Assembly: GCF_055900595.2 (NCBI RefSeq)
Contig: NZ_CM148325.1
DNA: 64,000 nt
Reading direction: 5' to 3' (one strand)
Shown here: one piece after another, positions 1,847 to 37,051 of the stretch
Position numbering within the stretch: the first letter of the stretch is position 1
Layout of the letters: every line of letters begins with the position of its first letter
The notes under the pieces: generated by a model
The model's input: only the letters and a program-made list of their open reading frames with translations
Database searches by the model: none
What the model was told of the DNA's origin: nothing
Program-made: the position numbers and the translations under genes

Positions 1847-2896
1847 TTATGCGATGACGCTTTGAATCACATAGTTAATCGCACCACCACCAACAATCAG
1901 CCAGGCAAACAGTACCAGAGCCATCAGCAGAGGTTTCGCCCCGGCTTTTTTCAGCGCGCTGACGTGAGTGGTCAGACCCAGCGCCGCCATCGCCATTGCC
2001 AGCAGGAAGGTATCCAGCGTTACCAGCATATTCACTACGCTCTGCGGTAACAGGTGGAACGAGTTAAAGATGGCAACGACGATGAACAAGATGGCAAACC
2101 ACGGAATAGTGATTTTGCTTTTCTCGCCGCTGTTCGCCCCAGACAGCTGTTTAACACGCGCCGCCAGCAGGATGAGGAACGGAGCCAGCATCATCACGCG
2201 CAGCATTTTGGAAATAACTGCTGCGTTTTCTGCATCCGGGCTGATGGCATGACCTGCCGCCACCACCTGCGCCACTTCGTGCACAGTAGAACCAATGTAG
2301 ATACCGAAAGTTTCCGGACTAAACCATTGAGACATCAGCGGATATATCGCCGGGTAGAGGAAAATCGCGACGGTACCGAAGATAACAACGGTTGCAACAG
2401 CCACGGTTACTTTACTGGCTTCCGCTTTCACTACCGGCTCAGTCGCCAGTACCGCGGCAGCACCACAGATACTGCTACCGGCACCGATCAACCAGCTGGT
2501 GTGCTTATCCAGACCAAACACTTTCTGCCCCAGGAAACAAGCCAGCAGGAAGGTACTGGACAGCGTCAGCACGTCAATGATGATCCCACTGATACCGACA
2601 TCGGCAATTTGCGAGAACGTCAGACGGAAGCCATAAAGAATGATACCCAGACGTAATAAATATTGCTTGGCAAACAGCACGCCACCGTCACAGCTTTTCC
2701 AGATGCGCGGATAGATGGTGTTGCCTAAAACCATCCCCAACAAGATTGCGAGGGTGAGGGCACTAAACCCGGCACCCGCAACCGCGGGAATGGAACCACC
2801 CCACAGGGCGACCCCGGTGATAACTGCACTCAGGGCTAACCCCGGAATAAAATGCCACAGTGTACGATGTTGTTTCTGTAAGGTGATATTCGTCAT
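1847..2896 (-). CDS. yeiH: Inner membrane protein YeiH (UPF0324 family)
   Basis: 349 aa hydrophobic ORF; divergent from LysR regulator yeiE as in K-12. Confidence 0.9.
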
Positions 2897-2949
2897 AACC
2901 CTCTCCTTTAACCGGGCATAAGGTTACGACTAACTGGTTTAAAAATAAA

Positions 2950-2973
2950 ATTGATTATATATTTATAATCAAT
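2950..2973. promoter_or_regulatory. Perfect 10-4-10 inverted repeat ATTGATTATA-TATT-TATAATCAAT in yeiH/yeiE divergent promoter (LysR-type T-N11-A-like site)
   Basis: Read directly in sequence; sits between divergent yeiH and LysR-family yeiE start codons. Confidence 0.55.
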
Positions 2974-2994
2974 CTTTATAAGTGGTAAGCGACT

Positions 2995-3876
2995 ATGCAC
3001 ATCACCCTCCGGCAGTTGGAAGTTTTTGCAGAAGTATTGAAAAGTGGATCAACCACCCAGGCGTCGGTGATGCTGGCGTTGTCGCAATCAGCAGTGAGCG
3101 CAGCCTTGACTGACCTGGAAGGGCAGCTTGGCGTGCAACTGTTTGATCGCGTGGGGAAAAGACTGGTTGTTAATGAACACGGGCGGCTGCTCTATCCGCG
3201 TGCGTTGGCACTGCTTGAACAGGCGATTGAAATCGAACAACTGTTTCGCGAAGACAACGGCGCGATTCGTATCTATGCCAGTAGTACTATCGGTAACTAC
3301 ATTCTGCCTGCAGTCATTGCCCGTTATCGCCATGATTATCCGCAGTTGCCGATTGAACTTAGCGTTGGGAACAGCCAGGACGTGATGCAAGCGGTGCTGG
3401 ATTTCCGCGTTGATATTGGCTTTATTGAAGGACCGTGCCACAGCACTGAAATCATCTCTGAACCGTGGCTGGAAGACGAGCTGGTGGTTTTCGCCGCGCC
3501 GACTTCGCCGTTGGCTCGTGGTCCGGTCACCTTAGAGCAGCTGGCTGCCGCGCCGTGGATCCTGCGTGAACGCGGTTCCGGCACGCGGGAGATTGTCGAT
3601 TATCTGTTGCTGTCACATTTACCGAAGTTTGAGATGGCAATGGAATTAGGTAACTCCGAGGCAATCAAACATGCGGTGCGTCATGGATTGGGAATTAGTT
3701 GCCTGTCGCGACGGGTCATTGAAGATCAATTGCAGGCAGGCACATTAAGTGAAGTTGCGGTCCCTCTGCCGCGCCTGATGCGTACGTTGTGGCGTATACA
3801 TCATCGGCAAAAACACCTTTCCAACGCGCTACGGCGCTTTCTGGACTATTGCGATCCCGCGAATGTACCGCGTTAA
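2995..3876 (+). CDS. yeiE: LysR-family transcriptional regulator YeiE
   Basis: 293 aa ORF with N-terminal HTH ([38 protein letters not shown]). Confidence 0.92.
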
Positions 3877-26290: not shown

Positions 26291-27199
26291 CTAATTCTGC
26301 TGTAAAAAGTGCAGAAACTGACTTAAAGCATAAGAAGGCGTTTCGTTATTACGCCAAAACACACCGACGCTGCCTTTCTGTTCAATCTTTGGCAGGTTGA
26401 GGATCACCAGTTGCCCCTGGCTGGCATAACGTTGCGCCAGGCGTAATGACAAAATAGAGATCATATTGCTGCTTTGTAACAGGTTGGTACTGACGTTCAT
26501 CGACGCCGACTCAATCGTGTTTTCTGGCAGCATCACGCCGTGGTCTACCAGCGCATTATCAATGCTGATGCGGATGGGGGTACCTGTCGGCCAGACTATC
26601 CACCGCCAGTTAGCAAGATCATTCCAGCTGAGGGTGGCGTATTTCGCCAGTGGATGCTCAGGACGGGCGACAAAGCATACCGGCTCGGTGTAGAGCACGC
26701 GATAATTCAGCGGCAGCTGCAACGCGCGACCGCCAATTCGCCCAACCACCACATCGATAGAACCTGCCAACAGATCTTGCAGCAATGGGGTCATCACCTT
26801 CTCTTCGATATTCAGGTGTAGAGTTGGCATCTCCTTGAGCAAATGCAAAATCGCCTGGGATACGCAGTCAGTGGCGACGGGAGAACAGCCAATTTTCAGA
26901 CTGCCGACCAGTCCACCTTGTTTAAAGCGAGCCAGTTCATATTGCGATCTTTCCATGTCATTGATTAACCGTTGGGCATGTTGCAATAACAATTTGCCGC
27001 CTTCAGTAGGACGAAGTCCTTTGCTGTGCCGCTCAAAAAGTGTGAGTTCGATCTCATCTTCGAGTTGTGACAACCATTTCGACAGCGCAGGCTGGGTGAT
27101 ATTCATCATCCGCGCGACATGGGTCAGATTGCCCTGTTCACCCAGCGCCACCAGCATTTGCAGGTGATGTAGTTTTAGTTTTTGCGCCCAGTTCGCCAT
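26291..27199 (-). CDS. mhbR: LysR-family regulator of the 3-hydroxybenzoate/gentisate cluster
   Basis: HTH LTHVARMMNITQPALSKWLSQLE; start placed at MANWAQ (ATG 27197-27199) preceded by GGAGG; divergent from catabolic operon. Confidence 0.75.
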   Translation of the reverse strand: MANWAQKLKLHHLQMLVALGEQGNLTHVARMMNITQPALSKWLSQLEDEIELTLFERHSKGLRPTEGGKLLLQHAQRLINDMERSQYELARFKQGGLVGSLKIGCSPVATDCVSQAILHLLKEMPTLHLNIEEKVMTPLLQDLLAGSIDVVVGRIGGRALQLPLNYRVLYTEPVCFVARPEHPLAKYATLSWNDLANWRWIVWPTGTPIRISIDNALVDHGVMLPENTIESASMNVSTNLLQSSNMISILSLRLAQRYASQGQLVILNLPKIEQKGSVGVFWRNNETPSYALSQFLHFLQQN

Positions 27200-27325
27200 T
27201 TGCCATAACCTCCAGGTTATCTCTCTGTCCGAAATGCCATTGTACATCTCATCTCTTTAATTACATTATCGCAACATACATAAAACAAAAGAAACATCTA
27301 CCTTACCTGCACTGAGGCATTTACT

Positions 27326-28684
27326 ATGACTCAACGACGTGATTTACAAGCACTGATCGATGCTGCTCCGGTCGGCAAGATGCAGTGGCGCGTTATCATC
27401 TGCTGTTTTCTGGTGGTAATGCTCGATGGTTTTGACACCGCGGCTATCGGATTTATCGCCCCTGATATTCGCACTCACTGGCAACTCACCGCAGGCGATC
27501 TCGCCCCGCTTTTTGGCGCGGGTCTGCTGGGATTAACCGCAGGCGCACTGCTTTGTGGCCCGTTGTCCGATCGCTTTGGTCGCAAGCGGGTGATTGAGCT
27601 GTGCGTCTTTTTGTTTGGCGCGTTAAGCCTCGCCTCGGCTTTCTCACCGGATCTGCAAACGCTGGTCTTCCTGCGCTTTCTCACCGGCCTGGGTCTGGGC
27701 GGCGCGATGCCGAACACCATCACCATGACCTCGGAATATCTGCCTGCCCGCCGCCGAGGCGCGCTGGTGACGCTGATGTTTTGCGGCTTTACGCTGGGTT
27801 CGGCGTTTGGCGGGATTGTCAGCGCACAGCTGGTGCCGGTGATTGGCTGGCACGGCATTCTGGTGTTGGGTGGCGTGTTACCGCTGATGCTGTTTGTCGC
27901 ACTGCTGGTAGTTCTGCCGGAATCGCCACGCTGGCAGGTGCGCCGCCAGCTACCGCAGGCGGTGATTGCGAAAACCGTCAGCGCCATCACCCGCGAGCGT
28001 TATGTCGATACCCACTTTTATCTCATTGAATCAGCCTCCGTTACAAAAGGCAGCATTCGTCAACTGTTTATGGGACGTCAGTTACCCATCACGTTGATGT
28101 TGTGGGTAGTGTTCTTTATGAGCCTGCTGATTATTTACCTGCTCTCAAGCTGGATGCCGACGCTACTGAACCATCGCGGCATCGACCTGCAACACGCGTC
28201 CTGGGTCACCGCCGCGTTCCAGATTGGTGGTACGTTAGGCGCGCTGGCGCTGGGCGTGCTGATGGATAAGTTCAATCCTTTCCGCGTGCTGGCGCTGAGC
28301 TATGCCGTAGGCGCTGTATGCATCGTGATGATTGGCTTAAGCCAGGATGGATTATGGCTGATGGCGCTGGCGATTTTCGGCACCGGCATTGGCATTAGCG
28401 GATCTCAGGTGGGGTTGAACGCGTTGACCGCAACGCTCTACCCAACGCAAAGCCGCGCCACGGGCGTGAGCTGGTCAAACGCCGTAGGCCGCTGCGGCGC
28501 GATTGTCGGCTCGCTTTCTGGCGGCCTGATGATGGCGATGAATTTCTCTTTCGACACCCTGTTTTTCATTATCGCTGTGCCCGCGGCGATCAGTGCGGTG
28601 ATGTTAAGCCTGCTGATCACCGTGGTTCGCCAGTCGACCTCTGTCCCTGACTCACTGCCTCGCGCAGGCATTGTGAACGAATAA
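27326..28684 (+). CDS. mhbT: MFS aromatic-acid transporter (3-hydroxybenzoate/gentisate transporter-like)
   Basis: 452 aa; MFS signature [12 protein letters not shown]; first gene of operon. Confidence 0.75.
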
Positions 28685-28695
28685 GGAGCATCCTA

Positions 28696-29724
28696 ATGAC
28701 TGATAACAATCAAAAAAGCCGCGAGCAATTTTATCAGCATATTTCCGGGCAAAACCTGACCCCGCTGTGGGAGTCACTGCACCACCTGGTGCCGAAAACG
28801 CCCAACGCCAACTGTGCGCCAGCGTACTGGAATTATCAGGAGATCCGCCCGCTGCTGCTGGAGAGCGGCAGCCTGATTGGCGCGAAAGAAGCTGTGCGTC
28901 GTGTGCTGGTACTGGAAAACCCGGCGCTGCGCGGGCAGTCTTCCATCACCGCGACTTTGTATGCTGGTTTGCAACTGATCATGCCGGGCGAAGTGGCACC
29001 GAGTCATCGTCATAACCAATCGGCGCTGCGTTTTATTGTTGAAGGCAAAGGGGCATTTACCGCCGTTGATGGCGAACGCACGCCAATGAATGAGGGCGAT
29101 TTTATCCTGACCCCACAATGGCGCTGGCACGATCACGGTAACCCTGGCGACGAACCGGTTATCTGGCTCGATGGGCTGGATCTGCCATTAGTGAACACTC
29201 TGGGCTGCGGTTTTGCCGAAGATTACCCGGAAGAGCAACAACCGGTAACGCGTAAAGAGGGCGATTATCTGCCACGTTACGCTGCCAATATGTTGCCGCT
29301 GCGCCATCAGACCGGGAACTCCTCACCCATCTTTAACTACCGTTATGACCGTAGCCGCGAAGTGCTGCACGATTTAACCCGCCTGGGCGATGCCGATGAG
29401 TGGGATGGCTACAAAATGCGCTACGTCAACCCGGTCACCGGCGGCTATCCGATGCCGTCGATGGGCGCTTTCCTGCAACTGCTGCCGAAAGGGTTCGCCT
29501 CACGCGTGGCGCGTACTACTGACAGCACCATCTATCACGTGGTGGAAGGCGACGGGCAGGTCACTATCGGCAATGAAACCTTCAGCTTTAGTGCAAAAGA
29601 TCTCTTTGTGGTGCCGACCTGGCACGGCGTGTCGTTCCAGACCACGCAAGATACCGTTTTATTCAGTTTTTCGGACAGACCGGTACAAGAAGCCCTGGGG
29701 CTGTTCCGCGAAGCGCGTTATTAA
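28696..29724 (+). CDS. mhbD: Gentisate 1,2-dioxygenase (bicupin)
   Basis: 342 aa; cupin His motifs ([13 protein letters not shown]..., [10 protein letters not shown]); RBS AAGGAG. Confidence 0.8.
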
Positions 29725-29739
29725 TTTGGGAGAGAGAAA

Positions 29740-30441
29740 ATGACTCAATATGTATTCGAACCACAAGCGCCCGTTACCGTACCGGTTGTTGGCGGTGATG
29801 AACAATTCCCCGTGCGCCGCGTTTACTGCGTCGGGCGTAACTATGCCGCCCACGCCCGCGAAATGGGCTTTGATCCGGATCGTGAACCCCCCTTCTTCTT
29901 CTGCAAACCAGCAGATGCCGTTGTTCCGGTCGCCGCTGGCGAAACGCTGGCGCTGCCGTATCCGGCGCAGACCGATAACTATCATTACGAAATTGAACTG
30001 GTGGTGGCGATTGGTAAAAAGGGCAGCGATATCCCACTGGAAAAGGCCCATGAATATGTCTGGGGTTATGCCACAGGCCTTGATATGACGCGCCGGGACC
30101 GTCAAATGGAAATGCGTCAGATGGGCCGCCCGTGGGAAATCGGCAAAGCATTTGATCTCTCGGCCCCCATCGCACCGCTGCACAAAGCCAGCGAAACCGG
30201 CGGTATTGATAACGCACCAATCTGGTTACAGGTAAACGGTGAAGATCACCAGCGCAGCGATATTCGTCATCTCATCTGGTCAGTGAATGAAACCATCAGC
30301 TACCTGTCAGGCTTCTTTGAACTGCAACCGGGCGATCTGATCTTCACTGGTACGCCAGAAGGGGTGGGCCCGGTAGTGAAAGGTGATGTGATCACGGGCA
30401 ACGTCGAGGGCTTAACCCCTATCGCGGTGAAGATTGTCTGA
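29740..30441 (+). CDS. mhbH: Fumarylpyruvate hydrolase (FAH family)
   Basis: 233 aa FAH-family protein [41 protein letters not shown]. Confidence 0.75.
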
Positions 30442-30446
30442 GGTGC

Positions 30447-31094
30447 ATGATGAAGCTGTACAGTTTTTTTAATAGTTCAGCATCGTACCGGGTACGCATT
30501 GCGCTGGCGCTGAAAGGCATTAATTACCAGACCGAAGGGGTGAATATCCGTATTGGTCAGCAAAATGAACTGGCCTATCGGCGGATGAATCCTGTCGGGC
30601 TGGTGCCGACGCTGCTGACTGACGAGGGCGAGTCACTCGGTCAGTCGCTGGCGATTATTGACTGGCTGGATCGTCACTACCCGCAAGTTCCGCTGGTGCC
30701 GCAGGAAGAACCGGCCCGCAACAAGGTGCTGGAAATTGTCTATGCCATCGCTTGTGATATTCATCCATTGAATAACCTGCGCGTGCTGCGCTACCTGACC
30801 GAAGAGCTGAACGTCAGTGAAGAAGAGAAAAAACGCTGGTATGCGCACTGGATCCAGCAAGGGTTAAGCGCGGTGGAACAGCTACTGCGCCAGAGCCAGT
30901 CGGGGCAATTTTGTGTGGGTGAGACGCCGACGCTGGCAGACTGCTGCCTTGTTCCGCAGTGGGCGAACGCGCTACGTATGAACTGCGATCTGAGTGGATA
31001 TCCGCGCTGCAAAGCGGTGTACGACGCCTGCACACAACTGCCAGCGTTCATTGCCGCAGCGCCAGAAAATCAACAAGATAAAATTTCAGCCTGA
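30447..31094 (+). CDS. mhbI: Maleylpyruvate isomerase (GST-zeta-like)
   Basis: about 214 aa GST-fold MKLYSFFNSSASYRVRIALALKGINY; start could be 30447 or 30450. Confidence 0.75.
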   Translation: MMKLYSFFNSSASYRVRIALALKGINYQTEGVNIRIGQQNELAYRRMNPVGLVPTLLTDEGESLGQSLAIIDWLDRHYPQVPLVPQEEPARNKVLEIVYAIACDIHPLNNLRVLRYLTEELNVSEEEKKRWYAHWIQQGLSAVEQLLRQSQSGQFCVGETPTLADCCLVPQWANALRMNCDLSGYPRCKAVYDACTQLPAFIAAAPENQQDKISA

Positions 31095-31108
31095 CCAGGA
31101 GAACCATA

Positions 31109-32302
31109 ATGACTAAAGTGACACGCGCAGTAATTGTGGGAGGCGGGATCGGCGGTGCGGCAACTGCGCTGTCACTGGCCCGCCAGGGGATCAAAGTGGT
31201 GCTGCTGGAAAAGGCGCATGAGATCGGTGAGATCGGCGCAGGCATCCAGTTGGGGCCAAACGCGTTTTCGGCGTTGGATAGTCTTGGTGTTGGCGAAATC
31301 GCCCGCCAGCGCGCGGTGTTTACCGATCACATCACCATGATGGATGCGGTGAACGCCGAAGAAGTGGTGCGTATTGAAACCGGGCAGGCCTTTCGTGACC
31401 ATTTCGGCGGCCCTTACGCGGTGATCCATCGCGTTGATATTCATGCCTCGGTATGGGAAGCGGTACTGACGCATCCGGACGTGGAGTATCACACCTCCAC
31501 AAACGTCGTTGATATTCGCGAGACGCCGGACGATGTCACCGTTTTCGACGATCGAGGTAATAGCTGGAGCGGCGATATTTTGATTGGCTGTGATGGCGTG
31601 AAGTCAGTGGTGCGCCAGAGCTTATTAGGCGATGCGCCGCGCGTCACCGGTCATGTGGTCTACCGTGCGGTTATCGATTGTGCGGATATGCCGGAAGATT
31701 TACGTATTAATGCGCCGGTATTGTGGGCGGGTCCGCACTGTCACCTGGTGCATTATCCTTTGCGCGGCGGCAAGCAGTATAACCTGGTGGTGACATTCCA
31801 CAGTCGCCACCAGGAAGAGTGGGGCGTGAAGGATGGCAGTAAAGAGGAAGTGCTCTCTTACTTTGAAGGGATTCACCCCCGTCCGCGCCAGATGCTGGAT
31901 AAACCGACTTCATGGCGACGCTGGTCAACCGCTGACCGTGAACCGGTGGCGAAGTGGGGAACGAAGCGCATAACGCTTGTGGGCGATGCGGCTCATCCGG
32001 TGGCGCAATATATGGCACAAGGTGCCTGTATGGCGCTGGAAGATGCAGTAACGCTGGGTAAGGCGCTGGCGCAGTGTGAGGGTGATGCGGCGCAAGCTTT
32101 TGCGCTGTATGAGTCGGTACGTATTCCGCGTACCGCGCGCATCGTCTGGTCGACCCGTGAAATGGGGCGGGTTTATCACGCCGCAGGGGTAGAACGTCAG
32201 GTACGTAATCTGCTGTGGAAAGGGAAATCGCAGGCAGAGTTTTATCGCGGCATGGAGTGGCTGTACGGCTGGAAAGAAGATAACTGTCTGCAACCACGCT
32301 GA
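31109..32302 (+). CDS. mhbM: 3-hydroxybenzoate 6-hydroxylase (FAD-dependent aromatic monooxygenase)
   Basis: 397 aa; FAD-binding VIVGGGIGGAATALSLARQGIKVVLLEK and GDAAHP motif. Confidence 0.8.
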   Translation: MTKVTRAVIVGGGIGGAATALSLARQGIKVVLLEKAHEIGEIGAGIQLGPNAFSALDSLGVGEIARQRAVFTDHITMMDAVNAEEVVRIETGQAFRDHFGGPYAVIHRVDIHASVWEAVLTHPDVEYHTSTNVVDIRETPDDVTVFDDRGNSWSGDILIGCDGVKSVVRQSLLGDAPRVTGHVVYRAVIDCADMPEDLRINAPVLWAGPHCHLVHYPLRGGKQYNLVVTFHSRHQEEWGVKDGSKEEVLSYFEGIHPRPRQMLDKPTSWRRWSTADREPVAKWGTKRITLVGDAAHPVAQYMAQGACMALEDAVTLGKALAQCEGDAAQAFALYESVRIPRTARIVWSTREMGRVYHAAGVERQVRNLLWKGKSQAEFYRGMEWLYGWKEDNCLQPR

Positions 32303-34121: not shown

Positions 34122-34493
34122 GAAACCATAGTGATGTTTTTTGACAATGTGTTAGCTCTTTATCAATAGGCCGCACGGTTGTTTGGTGGCGTCAAAATCG
34201 CCGAGGCGTTCCCTGAAGGCCGGGGCAGCCCATATGGATGTGGGCTGAGGGCGCGTTTTACAGGGATGTTACCTCGCGCCCGACCCGGTAGCCGTAAGGG
34301 ATAAGCCGAGGGCACCGCGCAGCGGCGATTTTGTTCGCCAGAGCCCGGGGGTGCAGGGGGCGGCGGCGACTGGTCGCCCCCTGCGCGCTCCTTGCGCTAG
34401 TGATTATATGAAGCAATGCACATGACAGGAGCGCAACAGGATGAGAGACTGAAATATTCTCGTTATTTTCGGATCTGATGACGTTAATTAATT

Positions 34494-34577
34494 TTAAAAT
34501 ATCATCTTAAATACGCCAGTCACCACCAGTAGTCCAATCAGGAAAATAATCAATACAGCCCAGAGTATAATTTTCAT
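34494..34577 (-). CDS. yohP: Small membrane protein YohP (27 aa)
   Basis: Minus-strand ATG..TAA encodes MKIILWAVLIIFLIGLLVVTGVFKMIF, matching the recalled YohP sequence; below ORF-track size cutoff. Confidence 0.85.
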   Translation of the reverse strand: MKIILWAVLIIFLIGLLVVTGVFKMIF

Positions 34578-34800
34578 TGGCGTTCCTTTATTTGTGAGTG
34601 TCGAATAAGTATAGGAAAAAACGAAGCCCTTTGCCGTTACTCATAAGTGATTAAGATAAATCGGAGAATATCATTCACTTACTGTATATTTTTCTGAATA
34701 TGTCGTTTTATTGCCACTGATGTATTGCCACGCGAAACTAAAAAATATATTGCATCACACGGTAATCTCCGCGCACCTTTTCTTACCTGACTATTCCTCC

Positions 34801-36237
34801 ATGAATCGTGATTCCTTTTACCCAGCCATCGCCTGTTTTCCTCTGTTACTGATGCTGGCCGGGTGTGCGCCTATGCATGAAACCCGCCAGGCGTTAAGCC
34901 AGCAAACACCCGCTGCGCAAGTTGACACCGCATTACCTACGGCGCTGAAAAATGGTTGGCCAGACAGCCAATGGTGGCTGGAGTATCACGATAATCAACT
35001 CACTTCATTAATTAACTATGCACTGCAGAACGCACCGGATATGCAGGTGGCTGAACAGCGCATTCAGCTGGCTGAAGCCCAGGCGAAGGCAGTTGCCACT
35101 CAGGATGGCCCTCAGATCGATTTTTCTGCGGATATGGAGCGGCAAAAAATGTCGGCAGAAGGGCTAATGGGGCCGTTTGCTCTGAACGATCCTGCCGCAG
35201 GTACGACCGGTCCGTGGTACACCAACGGTACTTTTGGCTTAACGGCGGGCTGGCATCTCGATATCTGGGGAAAGAATCGGGCGGAGGTAACTGCTCGCCT
35301 GGGTACGGTTAAAGCACGAGCGGCGGAACGCGAGCAAACCCGCCAATTGCTGGCTGGCAGCGTTGCCCGCCTTTACTGGGAGTGGCAAACCCAGGCAGCG
35401 TTAAACACTGTTTTGCAGCAAATCGAAAAAGAGCAGAACACCATTATCGCGACCGATCGCCAGCTATATCAGAACGGGATTACTTCTTCAGTTGAAGGTG
35501 TGGAAACCGATATTAATGCCAGCAAGACCCGGCAGCAGCTCAACGATGTCGTGGGAAAAATGAAAATTATTGAGGCACGGTTAAGCGCACTTACAAATCA
35601 CCAGATAAAGTCATTGAAGCTTAAACCGGTTGAGTTGCCGAAAGTGGCAAGTCAGCTTCCTGATGAACTGGGGTATTCATTGCTGGCACGGCGGGCAGAT
35701 TTGCAGGCAGCGCATTGGTACGTTGAGTCATCGTTAAGCACCATTGATGCGGCAAAAGCGGCATTTTACCCTGACATCAACCTGATGGCCTTCCTGCAAC
35801 AGGATGCGTTGCACTTAAGCGATTTGTTCCGTCATTCCGCGCAGCAAATGGGCGTTACGGCAGGCCTGACGCTACCCATTTTCGATAGTGGTCGTCTTAA
35901 CGCCAACCTCGATATTGCAAAAGCCGAAAGCAACTTGTCTATCGCCAGCTACAACAAAGCGGTGGTTGAAGCGGTGAATGACGTGGCGCGGGCAGCCAGT
36001 CAGGTTCAGACGCTGGTGGAGAAAAACCAGCATCAGGCGCAAATTGAGCGCGATGCCTTGCGTGTGGTAGGTCTTGCGCAGGCCCGCTTTAACGCGGGTA
36101 TCATTGCTGGTTCCCGCGTCAGCGAAGCCAGGATCCCGGCGCTGCGTGAGCGGGCCAATGGCCTGTTATTGCAAGGGCAGTGGCTGGATGCCTCCATTCA
36201 ACTCACTGGTGCGTTGGGCGGGGGGTACAAACGCTGA
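34801..36237 (+). CDS. mdtQ: Outer-membrane efflux lipoprotein (NodT/OprM family); uninterrupted here
   Basis: Start taken at MNRDSFYPAIACFPLLLMLAGC (lipobox LAGC); weak RBS so start uncertain; ORF track starts at TTG 34711. Confidence 0.75.
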   Translation: MNRDSFYPAIACFPLLLMLAGCAPMHETRQALSQQTPAAQVDTALPTALKNGWPDSQWWLEYHDNQLTSLINYALQNAPDMQVAEQRIQLAEAQAKAVATQDGPQIDFSADMERQKMSAEGLMGPFALNDPAAGTTGPWYTNGTFGLTAGWHLDIWGKNRAEVTARLGTVKARAAEREQTRQLLAGSVARLYWEWQTQAALNTVLQQIEKEQNTIIATDRQLYQNGITSSVEGVETDINASKTRQQLNDVVGKMKIIEARLSALTNHQIKSLKLKPVELPKVASQLPDELGYSLLARRADLQAAHWYVESSLSTIDAAKAAFYPDINLMAFLQQDALHLSDLFRHSAQQMGVTAGLTLPIFDSGRLNANLDIAKAESNLSIASYNKAVVEAVNDVARAASQVQTLVEKNQHQAQIERDALRVVGLAQARFNAGIIAGSRVSEARIPALRERANGLLLQGQWLDASIQLTGALGGGYKR

Positions 36238-36289: not shown

Positions 36290-37051
36290 ATGGTACAGGT
36301 CGCGATTATTACCGCTTCCGATTCGGGGATCGGCAAAGAGTGCGCGTTATTACTGGCGCAGCAGGGTTTTGATATTGGTATTACCTGGCACTCAGATGAA
36401 GAAGGGGCAAAAGATACCGCGCGTGAGGTGGTTAGCCACGGCGTACGTGCGGAGATGGTGCAGCTCGATCTCGGTAAACTGCCAGAGGGGGCACTGGCGC
36501 TGGAGAAACTTATTCAACGGCTGGGGCGCATCGATGTACTCGTGAATAATGCGGGCACAATGACCAAAGCGCCGTTTCTTGATATGGCTTTCGATGAGTG
36601 GCGCAAGATTTTTACCGTTGATGTTGATGGTGCATTTTTATGCTCGCAAATTGCGGCCCGCCAGATGGTGAAACAAGGGCAGGGCGGTCGCATCATCAAC
36701 ATTACGTCGGTACATGAGCATACGCCGCTGCCGGATGCCAGCGCCTATACAGCTGCTAAACATGCACTCGGTGGGCTAACCAAAGCGATGGCGCTTGAGC
36801 TGGTCAGGTATAAGATTTTGGTGAATGCAGTCGCGCCTGGGGCTATCGCCACACCAATGAATGGCATGGATGACGGCGACGTGAAGCCCGACGCGGAGCC
36901 TTCGATTCCCCTGCGGCGTTTCGGCGCAACGCATGAGATTGCCAGCCTGGTGGCGTGGTTATGCTCTGAAGGCGCAAATTACACCACCGGGCAGTCGTTA
37001 ATTGTCGATGGTGGCTTTATGCTGGCGAATCCGCAGTTCAACCCAGAATAG
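36290..37051 (+). CDS. yohF: Short-chain dehydrogenase/reductase YohF
   Basis: MVQVAIITASDSGIGKECALLLAQQGF...; SDR motifs TASDSGIG and YxxxK. Confidence 0.9.
   Translation: MVQVAIITASDSGIGKECALLLAQQGFDIGITWHSDEEGAKDTAREVVSHGVRAEMVQLDLGKLPEGALALEKLIQRLGRIDVLVNNAGTMTKAPFLDMAFDEWRKIFTVDVDGAFLCSQIAARQMVKQGQGGRIINITSVHEHTPLPDASAYTAAKHALGGLTKAMALELVRYKILVNAVAPGAIATPMNGMDDGDVKPDAEPSIPLRRFGATHEIASLVAWLCSEGANYTTGQSLIVDGGFMLANPQFNPE

Follow-up and report, generated by a model that had tools for sequence, protein, structure and literature searches.

An intact mdtQ gene encoding a predicted outer-membrane efflux lipoprotein: its start codon, its conserved upstream region and the K-12 lesion

We analyse a stretch of 64,000 nucleotides (contig NZ_CM148325.1 of NCBI RefSeq assembly GCF_055900595.2, hereafter the window) and find that positions 34801-36237 very probably hold an intact, selectively maintained mdtQ gene (also called yohG), which encodes the predicted outer-membrane factor (OMF) exit duct of a tripartite efflux pump. 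The + strand reading frame runs without interruption to the stop codon ending at 36237. Its mechanical start, TTG 34711, gives 508 aa, the in-frame ATG at 34801 gives a 478-aa product and another ATG, at 34720, would give 505 aa. The gene and its immediate surroundings are as follows.

34494-34577, - strand: yohP, the neighbour before mdtQ
34801-36237, + strand: mdtQ (yohG) coding sequence, 478 codons plus stop, intact
34801-34866, + strand: predicted lipoprotein signal peptide MNRDSFYPAIACFPLLLMLAGC, with lipobox LAGC (L19-A20-G21-C22), Cys22 at 34864-34866 and Ala at +2
34948-34952, + strand: run of five A (A5) in codons K50-N51, complete here and shortened by the frameshift in K-12
36290-37051, + strand: yohF, an SDR oxidoreductase gene, the neighbour after mdtQ

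The initial annotation had proposed an intact mdtQ coding for a NodT/OprM-like outer-membrane efflux lipoprotein, and both parts of that proposal hold up. The frame is open to 36237 and the protein matches the NCBIfam MdtQ equivalog NF008524 end to end (1018.3 bits against a cutoff of 650, with residues 1-478 on profile positions 1-478 of 478); the NodT subfamily model TIGR01845 covers residues 16-475 (271.9 against a cutoff of 210.05), Pfam OEP (PF02321) matches two stretches as tandem repeats (107.6 bits against a cutoff of 22), and the N terminus carries the lipobox LAGC. We also considered whether the protein is MdtP, and rejected this identity: the score against NCBIfam NF007390, 350.9 bits, lies below the equivalog cutoff of 597, as expected of a paralogue. 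When the protein is searched against PDB sequences, the best match is VceC (1yc9) at 2.8e-39 over residues 51-477, followed by OprM, CmeC, SilC and CusC. An AlphaFold2 monomer model, made from an alignment of 25 orthologues, is of moderate quality overall (pLDDT 69.8); its long helices are confident, and segments 103-155 and 323-362, where the beta-barrel is expected, fall below a pLDDT of 50. A fold search of the PDB with this model returns 44 significant matches, every one of them an OMF channel, and in the predicted structure the helical parts of MdtQ thus show the OMF fold.

The N terminus is equally telling. M1, C22 and A23 are invariant in 25 MdtQ orthologues, down to a Burkholderiales protein at 32% identity, and the arrangement of a Met followed by a lipobox recurs in most of the related loci that we scanned. 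With Ala and not Asp at the +2 position, the Lol +2 rule would send the mature protein to the outer membrane. In the mechanism that we propose, the 478-aa precursor would be exported, lipidated on Cys22 and sorted to the outer membrane; there, by analogy with OprM, CusC and VceC, it would assemble as a trimeric channel and would serve a tripartite efflux pump as its exit duct.

The statement of the initial annotation that mdtQ is interrupted in K-12 proves correct. Aligned pairwise with the window gene, K-12 has one A fewer in the A5 run (A4), and this is the sole gap in the alignment; in K-12 the original frame reads K50, then M, and meets a stop 19 codons after K50. The MG1655 reference record lists mdtQ (b2139) as a 1436-nt pseudogene, and a K-12 O16:H48 derivative is flagged "frameshifted". 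Alignment of the window gene to K-12 and to orthologues reveals no hidden frameshift, and the K-12 frame is not intact. To count the two alleles we used short probes across the A-run, designed so that a 28-mer megablast word cannot fit within either flank by itself. Because the lesion lies in a homopolymer run, a classic place for sequencing error, one may argue that the intact frame is an assembly or sequencing artefact and that the real genome carries a K-12-like A4. We give this reading next to no weight: the probes find A5 in 5005 of 5426 independent complete E. coli genomes, an independently assembled genome with 99.9% identity over the locus also carries A5, and the A4 allele (355/5426) belongs, among the matches listed, mostly to K-12 or laboratory strains, besides a few isolates whose genomes are of similar size. 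Neither allele could be assigned in about 66 of the 5426 genomes, where the probe meets a SNP or the locus is missing. An in-frame mdtQ is therefore the norm in E. coli and K-12 is the exception; the pseudogene of K-12 arose when a single A dropped out of the A5 run at codons 50-51, a change restricted to that lineage. That the intact state is the usual one is already known: the literature says so (PMC11762307), and RefSeq annotates a near-identical gene as intact.

The initial annotation left the start codon uncertain. Comparison of the sequences upstream of the gene places it at ATG 34801, not TTG 34711, and in this reading the mechanical start over-extends mdtQ by 30 codons into a regulatory region, which divides as follows.

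34711-34800, + strand: mechanical 5' extension from TTG 34711 to the ATG, read here as non-coding 5' regulatory region and leader, outside the protein
34720-34745, + strand: conserved non-coding block ATGTATTGCCACGCG(A/T)AACTAAAAAA, 26 nt, nearly invariant
34761-34777, + strand: second conserved block GGTAATCTCCGCGCACC, containing TAATCT at 34763-34768
34778-34800, + strand: pyrimidine-rich leader, with no Shine-Dalgarno sequence directly before the ATG

The alternative, in which the true product is the 508-aa form from TTG 34711 or the 505-aa form from ATG 34720, draws on the absence of a Shine-Dalgarno sequence before ATG 34801 and on the frame being open from 34711 in E. coli. This open frame is, however, kept only in E. 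coli and in one or two other Escherichia loci among those examined. Upstream of the mdtQ Met, a stop closes the frame 3 codons away in both E. whittamii and Escherichia sp. E1V33, 11 codons away in E. albertii, and within 1-20 codons in most other genera. In the upstream alignment, indels fall between the conserved block at 34720-34745 and the ATG, and the block itself is nearly invariant even at what would be third codon positions; near-invariance at would-be wobble positions together with indels is typical of DNA or RNA elements and not of coding sequence. The substitution pattern agrees: relative to K-12 and CFT073, the extension has 3 nonsynonymous and 1 synonymous changes and the coding sequence 6 and 45 (Fisher p = 0.012), so that changes in the extension are mostly nonsynonymous. 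A 30-residue extension would moreover bury the signal peptide, the NF008524 profile begins at M1 of the 478-aa form, and PGAP annotates the ATG. Taken together, these observations leave the longer products a virtually nil probability, and we regard the 508/505-aa reading as effectively refuted.

The remark that ATG 34801 has a poor ribosome-binding site is accurate and does not discriminate between starts, since none of them has a Shine-Dalgarno sequence: TTG 34711 and ATG 34720 are equally without one, and the interaction energy with the anti-Shine-Dalgarno sequence is +0.7 kcal/mol for ATG 34801 and +0.1 to +1.2 over all candidate starts. In 12 mdtQ orthologues the energy runs from -2.2 to +0.9, and again none has a Shine-Dalgarno sequence. 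By comparison, six of eight neighbouring control genes lie at -5.6 to -10.5 (the other two are dusC at -3.8 and pbpG at +0.3), and the background mean over the window is -2.2. Shine-Dalgarno strength was thus tried as a means of choosing the start and found uninformative. What settles the uncertainty in favour of ATG 34801 is the invariance of M1 and C22, the upstream stops, the indels and the substitution pattern. A pyrimidine-rich leader lacking a Shine-Dalgarno sequence is a conserved trait of mdtQ, and its recurrence across the 12 orthologues suggests that a non-canonical or weak mode of translation initiation may itself be conserved.

Now we consider the region upstream of ATG 34801. The block at 34720-34745 is nearly invariant across 13 aligned sequences from Escherichia, Citrobacter, Salmonella and Phytobacter. 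Of 82 loci scanned, 49 have its core at a distance of 45-58 nt before the approximate start of mdtQ, and these span seven genera (Enterobacter, Lelliottia and Superficieibacter besides the four aligned); in most of the remaining loci, including those of Klebsiella, Kluyvera, Raoultella, Yokenella, Pluralibacter and Leclercia, the core was not found. Within E. coli the block is single-copy (a median of one place per genome) and 100% identical in 5334 of 5409 genomes, and in the window it occurs once against 0 expected by chance. A second genomic copy, which could mark a co-regulated partner, did not appear in the search of E. coli genomes, and no Rfam family matches the block or the leader. We infer from this conservation that the block is a candidate promoter or operator of mdtQ.

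One specific identity for the block can be set aside. Read against the 20-bp consensus of the marbox (the site of MarA, SoxS and Rob), it agrees at 10 of 14 specified positions, which is no better than chance; sites of equal score number six in the 223-bp intergenic region, where about 2.5 are expected by chance. In the second block, at 34761-34777, the pattern TAnnCT is kept across genera in the upstream alignment, and by eye TAATCT at 34763-34768 is a possible -10 hexamer. A sigma-70 scan called no promoter between yohP and mdtQ, with counts at the level of shuffled sequence, and according to a 2025 review the promoter of mdtQ still lacks experimental confirmation (PMC11762307). The lack of a sigma-70 call, together with the lack of a Shine-Dalgarno sequence, means that expression of mdtQ may be low or conditional.

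Several other features touch the same intergenic interval. The TRIP1c repeat, which mediates chromosomal rearrangements, is reported to lie 43 bp after dusC (yohI) and 363 bp before mdtQ (PMC10888264); these distances would put it at about 34165-34437 in the window. A weak Rfam match to AgvB on the - strand at 34411-34471 (22.9 bits, where the gathering score is 56, with E = 0.048), probably due to chance, overlaps the end of TRIP1c. In ETEC1722 an IS1 element (IS1B) is inserted between yohP and mdtQ.

Quantitative comparison of alleles shows how the gene has been evolving. The Nei-Gojobori dN/dS is 0.037 for the window against a frame-repaired K-12 gene, 0.067 for the window against CFT073 and 0.083 for CFT073 against K-12, with dS in these comparisons of 0.08-0.15. 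Such ratios indicate strong purifying selection on mdtQ, and values of 0.04-0.08 also imply that K-12 acquired its frameshift recently. Orthologues at 65-98% identity are present in about 80 species representatives of Enterobacteriaceae, from genera that include Escherichia, Citrobacter, Salmonella, Klebsiella, Kluyvera, Enterobacter and Raoultella, among others. The mdtQ locus of the window is 96.4% identical to K-12 at the nucleotide level; this matches the neighbourhood as a whole, which stands at about 96% (93.7-98.8% per feature, with dusC at 96.2%). Only 15 of 5422 matching E. coli genomes reach at least 99% identity at the mdtQ locus.

Purifying selection coexists with recurrent loss. 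Beyond K-12, mdtQ is inactivated in Salmonella Typhi and Paratyphi A. Other lesions in E. coli are sporadic. In PCN033 the 4 bp CAGT are duplicated at gene nt 1196, and the annotation there records a frameshift. EC14 lacks one base at gene nt 1416, which changes the final 7 residues and lengthens the protein to 491 aa, although its annotation treats the gene as intact; and in MRE162 most of the mdtQ locus is deleted. The gene is hence dispensable enough to be lost repeatedly, in K-12, PCN033, EC14, MRE162, Salmonella Typhi and Paratyphi A. Fragmentary copies occur in other genera as well: in Citrobacter koseri NCTC10786 the best segment covers the query from residue 112 onwards and the sequence upstream is in another frame, in C. 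amalonaticus AUH_CA_2023_1 the match ends at about residue 330, and Leclercia adecarboxylata NCTC13032 has a partial segment at 53% identity. These three may be pseudogenes.

These losses raise the question of whether mdtQ is intact but cryptic, a silent or barely expressed relic that is decaying in E. coli, with K-12 merely further along. The several independent inactivations in E. coli and Salmonella fit such a picture, as do the missing Shine-Dalgarno sequence, the silent sigma-70 scan, the lack of adjacent partner genes and the fact that the function of MdtQ has not been elucidated (PMC11762307). Nevertheless, dN/dS of 0.04-0.08 over the observed dS is incompatible with long-term neutrality, and the gene, its signal peptide and its upstream non-coding block are conserved across genera. 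Conservation extends to the leader without a Shine-Dalgarno sequence, and this points to a way of regulating the gene that is being maintained and not to decay. Orthologues are also transcribed and inducible: Salmonella yohG rises by 1.6 log2 under NaClO (PMC9065344) and 5.3-fold in a ciprofloxacin-selected strain (PMC5381912), and for K. pneumoniae ST258 a 479-aa YohG is listed with the reported outer-membrane proteins (PMC4404324). The 2025 review likewise counts mdtQ as a conserved part of the E. coli core genome, its pseudogene label notwithstanding (PMC11762307). We therefore consider a decaying relic very unlikely, and retain the reading of a selectively maintained gene.

If MdtQ is an exit duct, it would serve a pump, and no such partner can be identified from the genomic context. 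Across the Enterobacteriaceae loci examined, mdtQ always lies upstream of (yohF)-yohD-yohC-pbpG, and it holds the same position here; no adaptor or transporter gene was found beside it in any of these loci. MdtQ is thus an orphan OMF. Its neighbour yohF is missing at this position in many genera, and is for this reason not an obligatory partner. The 32%-identical Burkholderiales homologue lies in an operon of MarR, OMF, HlyD-family adaptor and MFS genes. This operon, along with the finding that the closest relatives of MdtQ are MdtP and VceC, makes a non-RND partner more likely than an RND one, and by this analogy the partner would be an EmrAB- or MdtNO-like non-RND pump encoded elsewhere.

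Taken one step further, we hold it possible, if rather doubtful, that in wild E. coli MdtQ is a second functional exit duct, expressed conditionally, which serves a non-RND pump and is controlled by some regulator through the block at 34720-34745 and the leader lacking a Shine-Dalgarno sequence. Were this true, decades of efflux genetics based on K-12 would have been blind to MdtQ because of the frameshift at codons 50-51. The same frameshift bears on the mdtQ-null phenotype that PMC11762307 cites from Sulavik et al. 2001. If the strain was K-12, that phenotype is unexplained, because the gene was already frameshifted at codons 50-51 before it was deleted; in that case a polar effect on yohF or measurement noise is a possible cause.

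Other observations concern the wider neighbourhood. In the CFT073 assembly, yohF (locus 2688-3449) is annotated as a pseudogene with an internal stop. Upstream of mdtQ in Klebsiella, Kluyvera and Raoultella we see ORFs resembling a bgl-type sugar operon and a methyltransferase-sized ORF, identified by size and N-terminal sequence only. Between yohJ and dusC, the window holds a complete 3-hydroxybenzoate/gentisate catabolic cluster at 26291-32302, made up of a LysR regulator (- strand), an MhbT-like aromatic-acid MFS transporter, gentisate 1,2-dioxygenase, an FAH-family hydrolase, maiA and 3-hydroxybenzoate 6-monooxygenase. This cluster is missing from K-12; of 5426 complete E. coli genomes 614 have it, O157:H7 among them. 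It is occasionally found on plasmids (26 places), and many Citrobacter, as well as S. diarizonae, likewise have the 3-hydroxybenzoate 6-monooxygenase gene upstream of dusC.

What follows for the use of the annotation is simple. The pseudogene label of K-12 is not to be transferred to other E. coli, in which mdtQ is usually in frame and, by the dN/dS estimates, under purifying selection; strains with an intact mdtQ, like this one and not K-12, are the right background in which to study MdtQ. The practical value of the result is small, as the noteworthy allele is that of K-12, already recorded in annotation and literature. Mildly new by-products are the precise start, the conserved leader without a Shine-Dalgarno sequence and the nearly invariant 26-nt upstream block.

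Finally, we compare the window gene with known systems. The closest counterpart is RefSeq MdtQ WP_001078154.1, the same gene in the same position with the same length of 478 aa and a single difference, V406 in the window for A406; residue 406 is not conserved in the MdtQ orthologue alignment and the V/A substitution is conservative. K-12 b2139 has the same neighbours, yohP and yohF, but its frame shifts where the window reads through. MdtP (YjcP) represents the closest paralogous family, also a NodT-type lipoprotein OMF, and its NF007390 profile matches MdtQ over nearly the full length; MdtP, however, is encoded in the mdtNOP operon with a presumed adaptor and transporter (PMC11762307), whereas mdtQ stands alone. 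VceC of Vibrio cholerae (1yc9) is the best match by sequence among solved structures and is among the top matches by fold, at an identity of only about 20%. VceC works with the VceAB pump, and no VceAB-like partner is adjacent to mdtQ. Similarly, the genes of the RND-associated OMF lipoproteins OprM, CusC, SilC, OprN and OprJ sit in pump operons, tolC being the exception, while mdtQ is alone. OprM, CusC, SilC, OprN, OprJ and TolC all have in common with MdtQ the two-repeat architecture and the OMF fold, which in MdtQ is predicted for the helical parts, at identities of 15-22% for the lipoprotein OMFs and 10-12% for TolC, which is not a lipoprotein, and OprM, CusC and SilC share with MdtQ the N-terminal lipidation that we predict for it.
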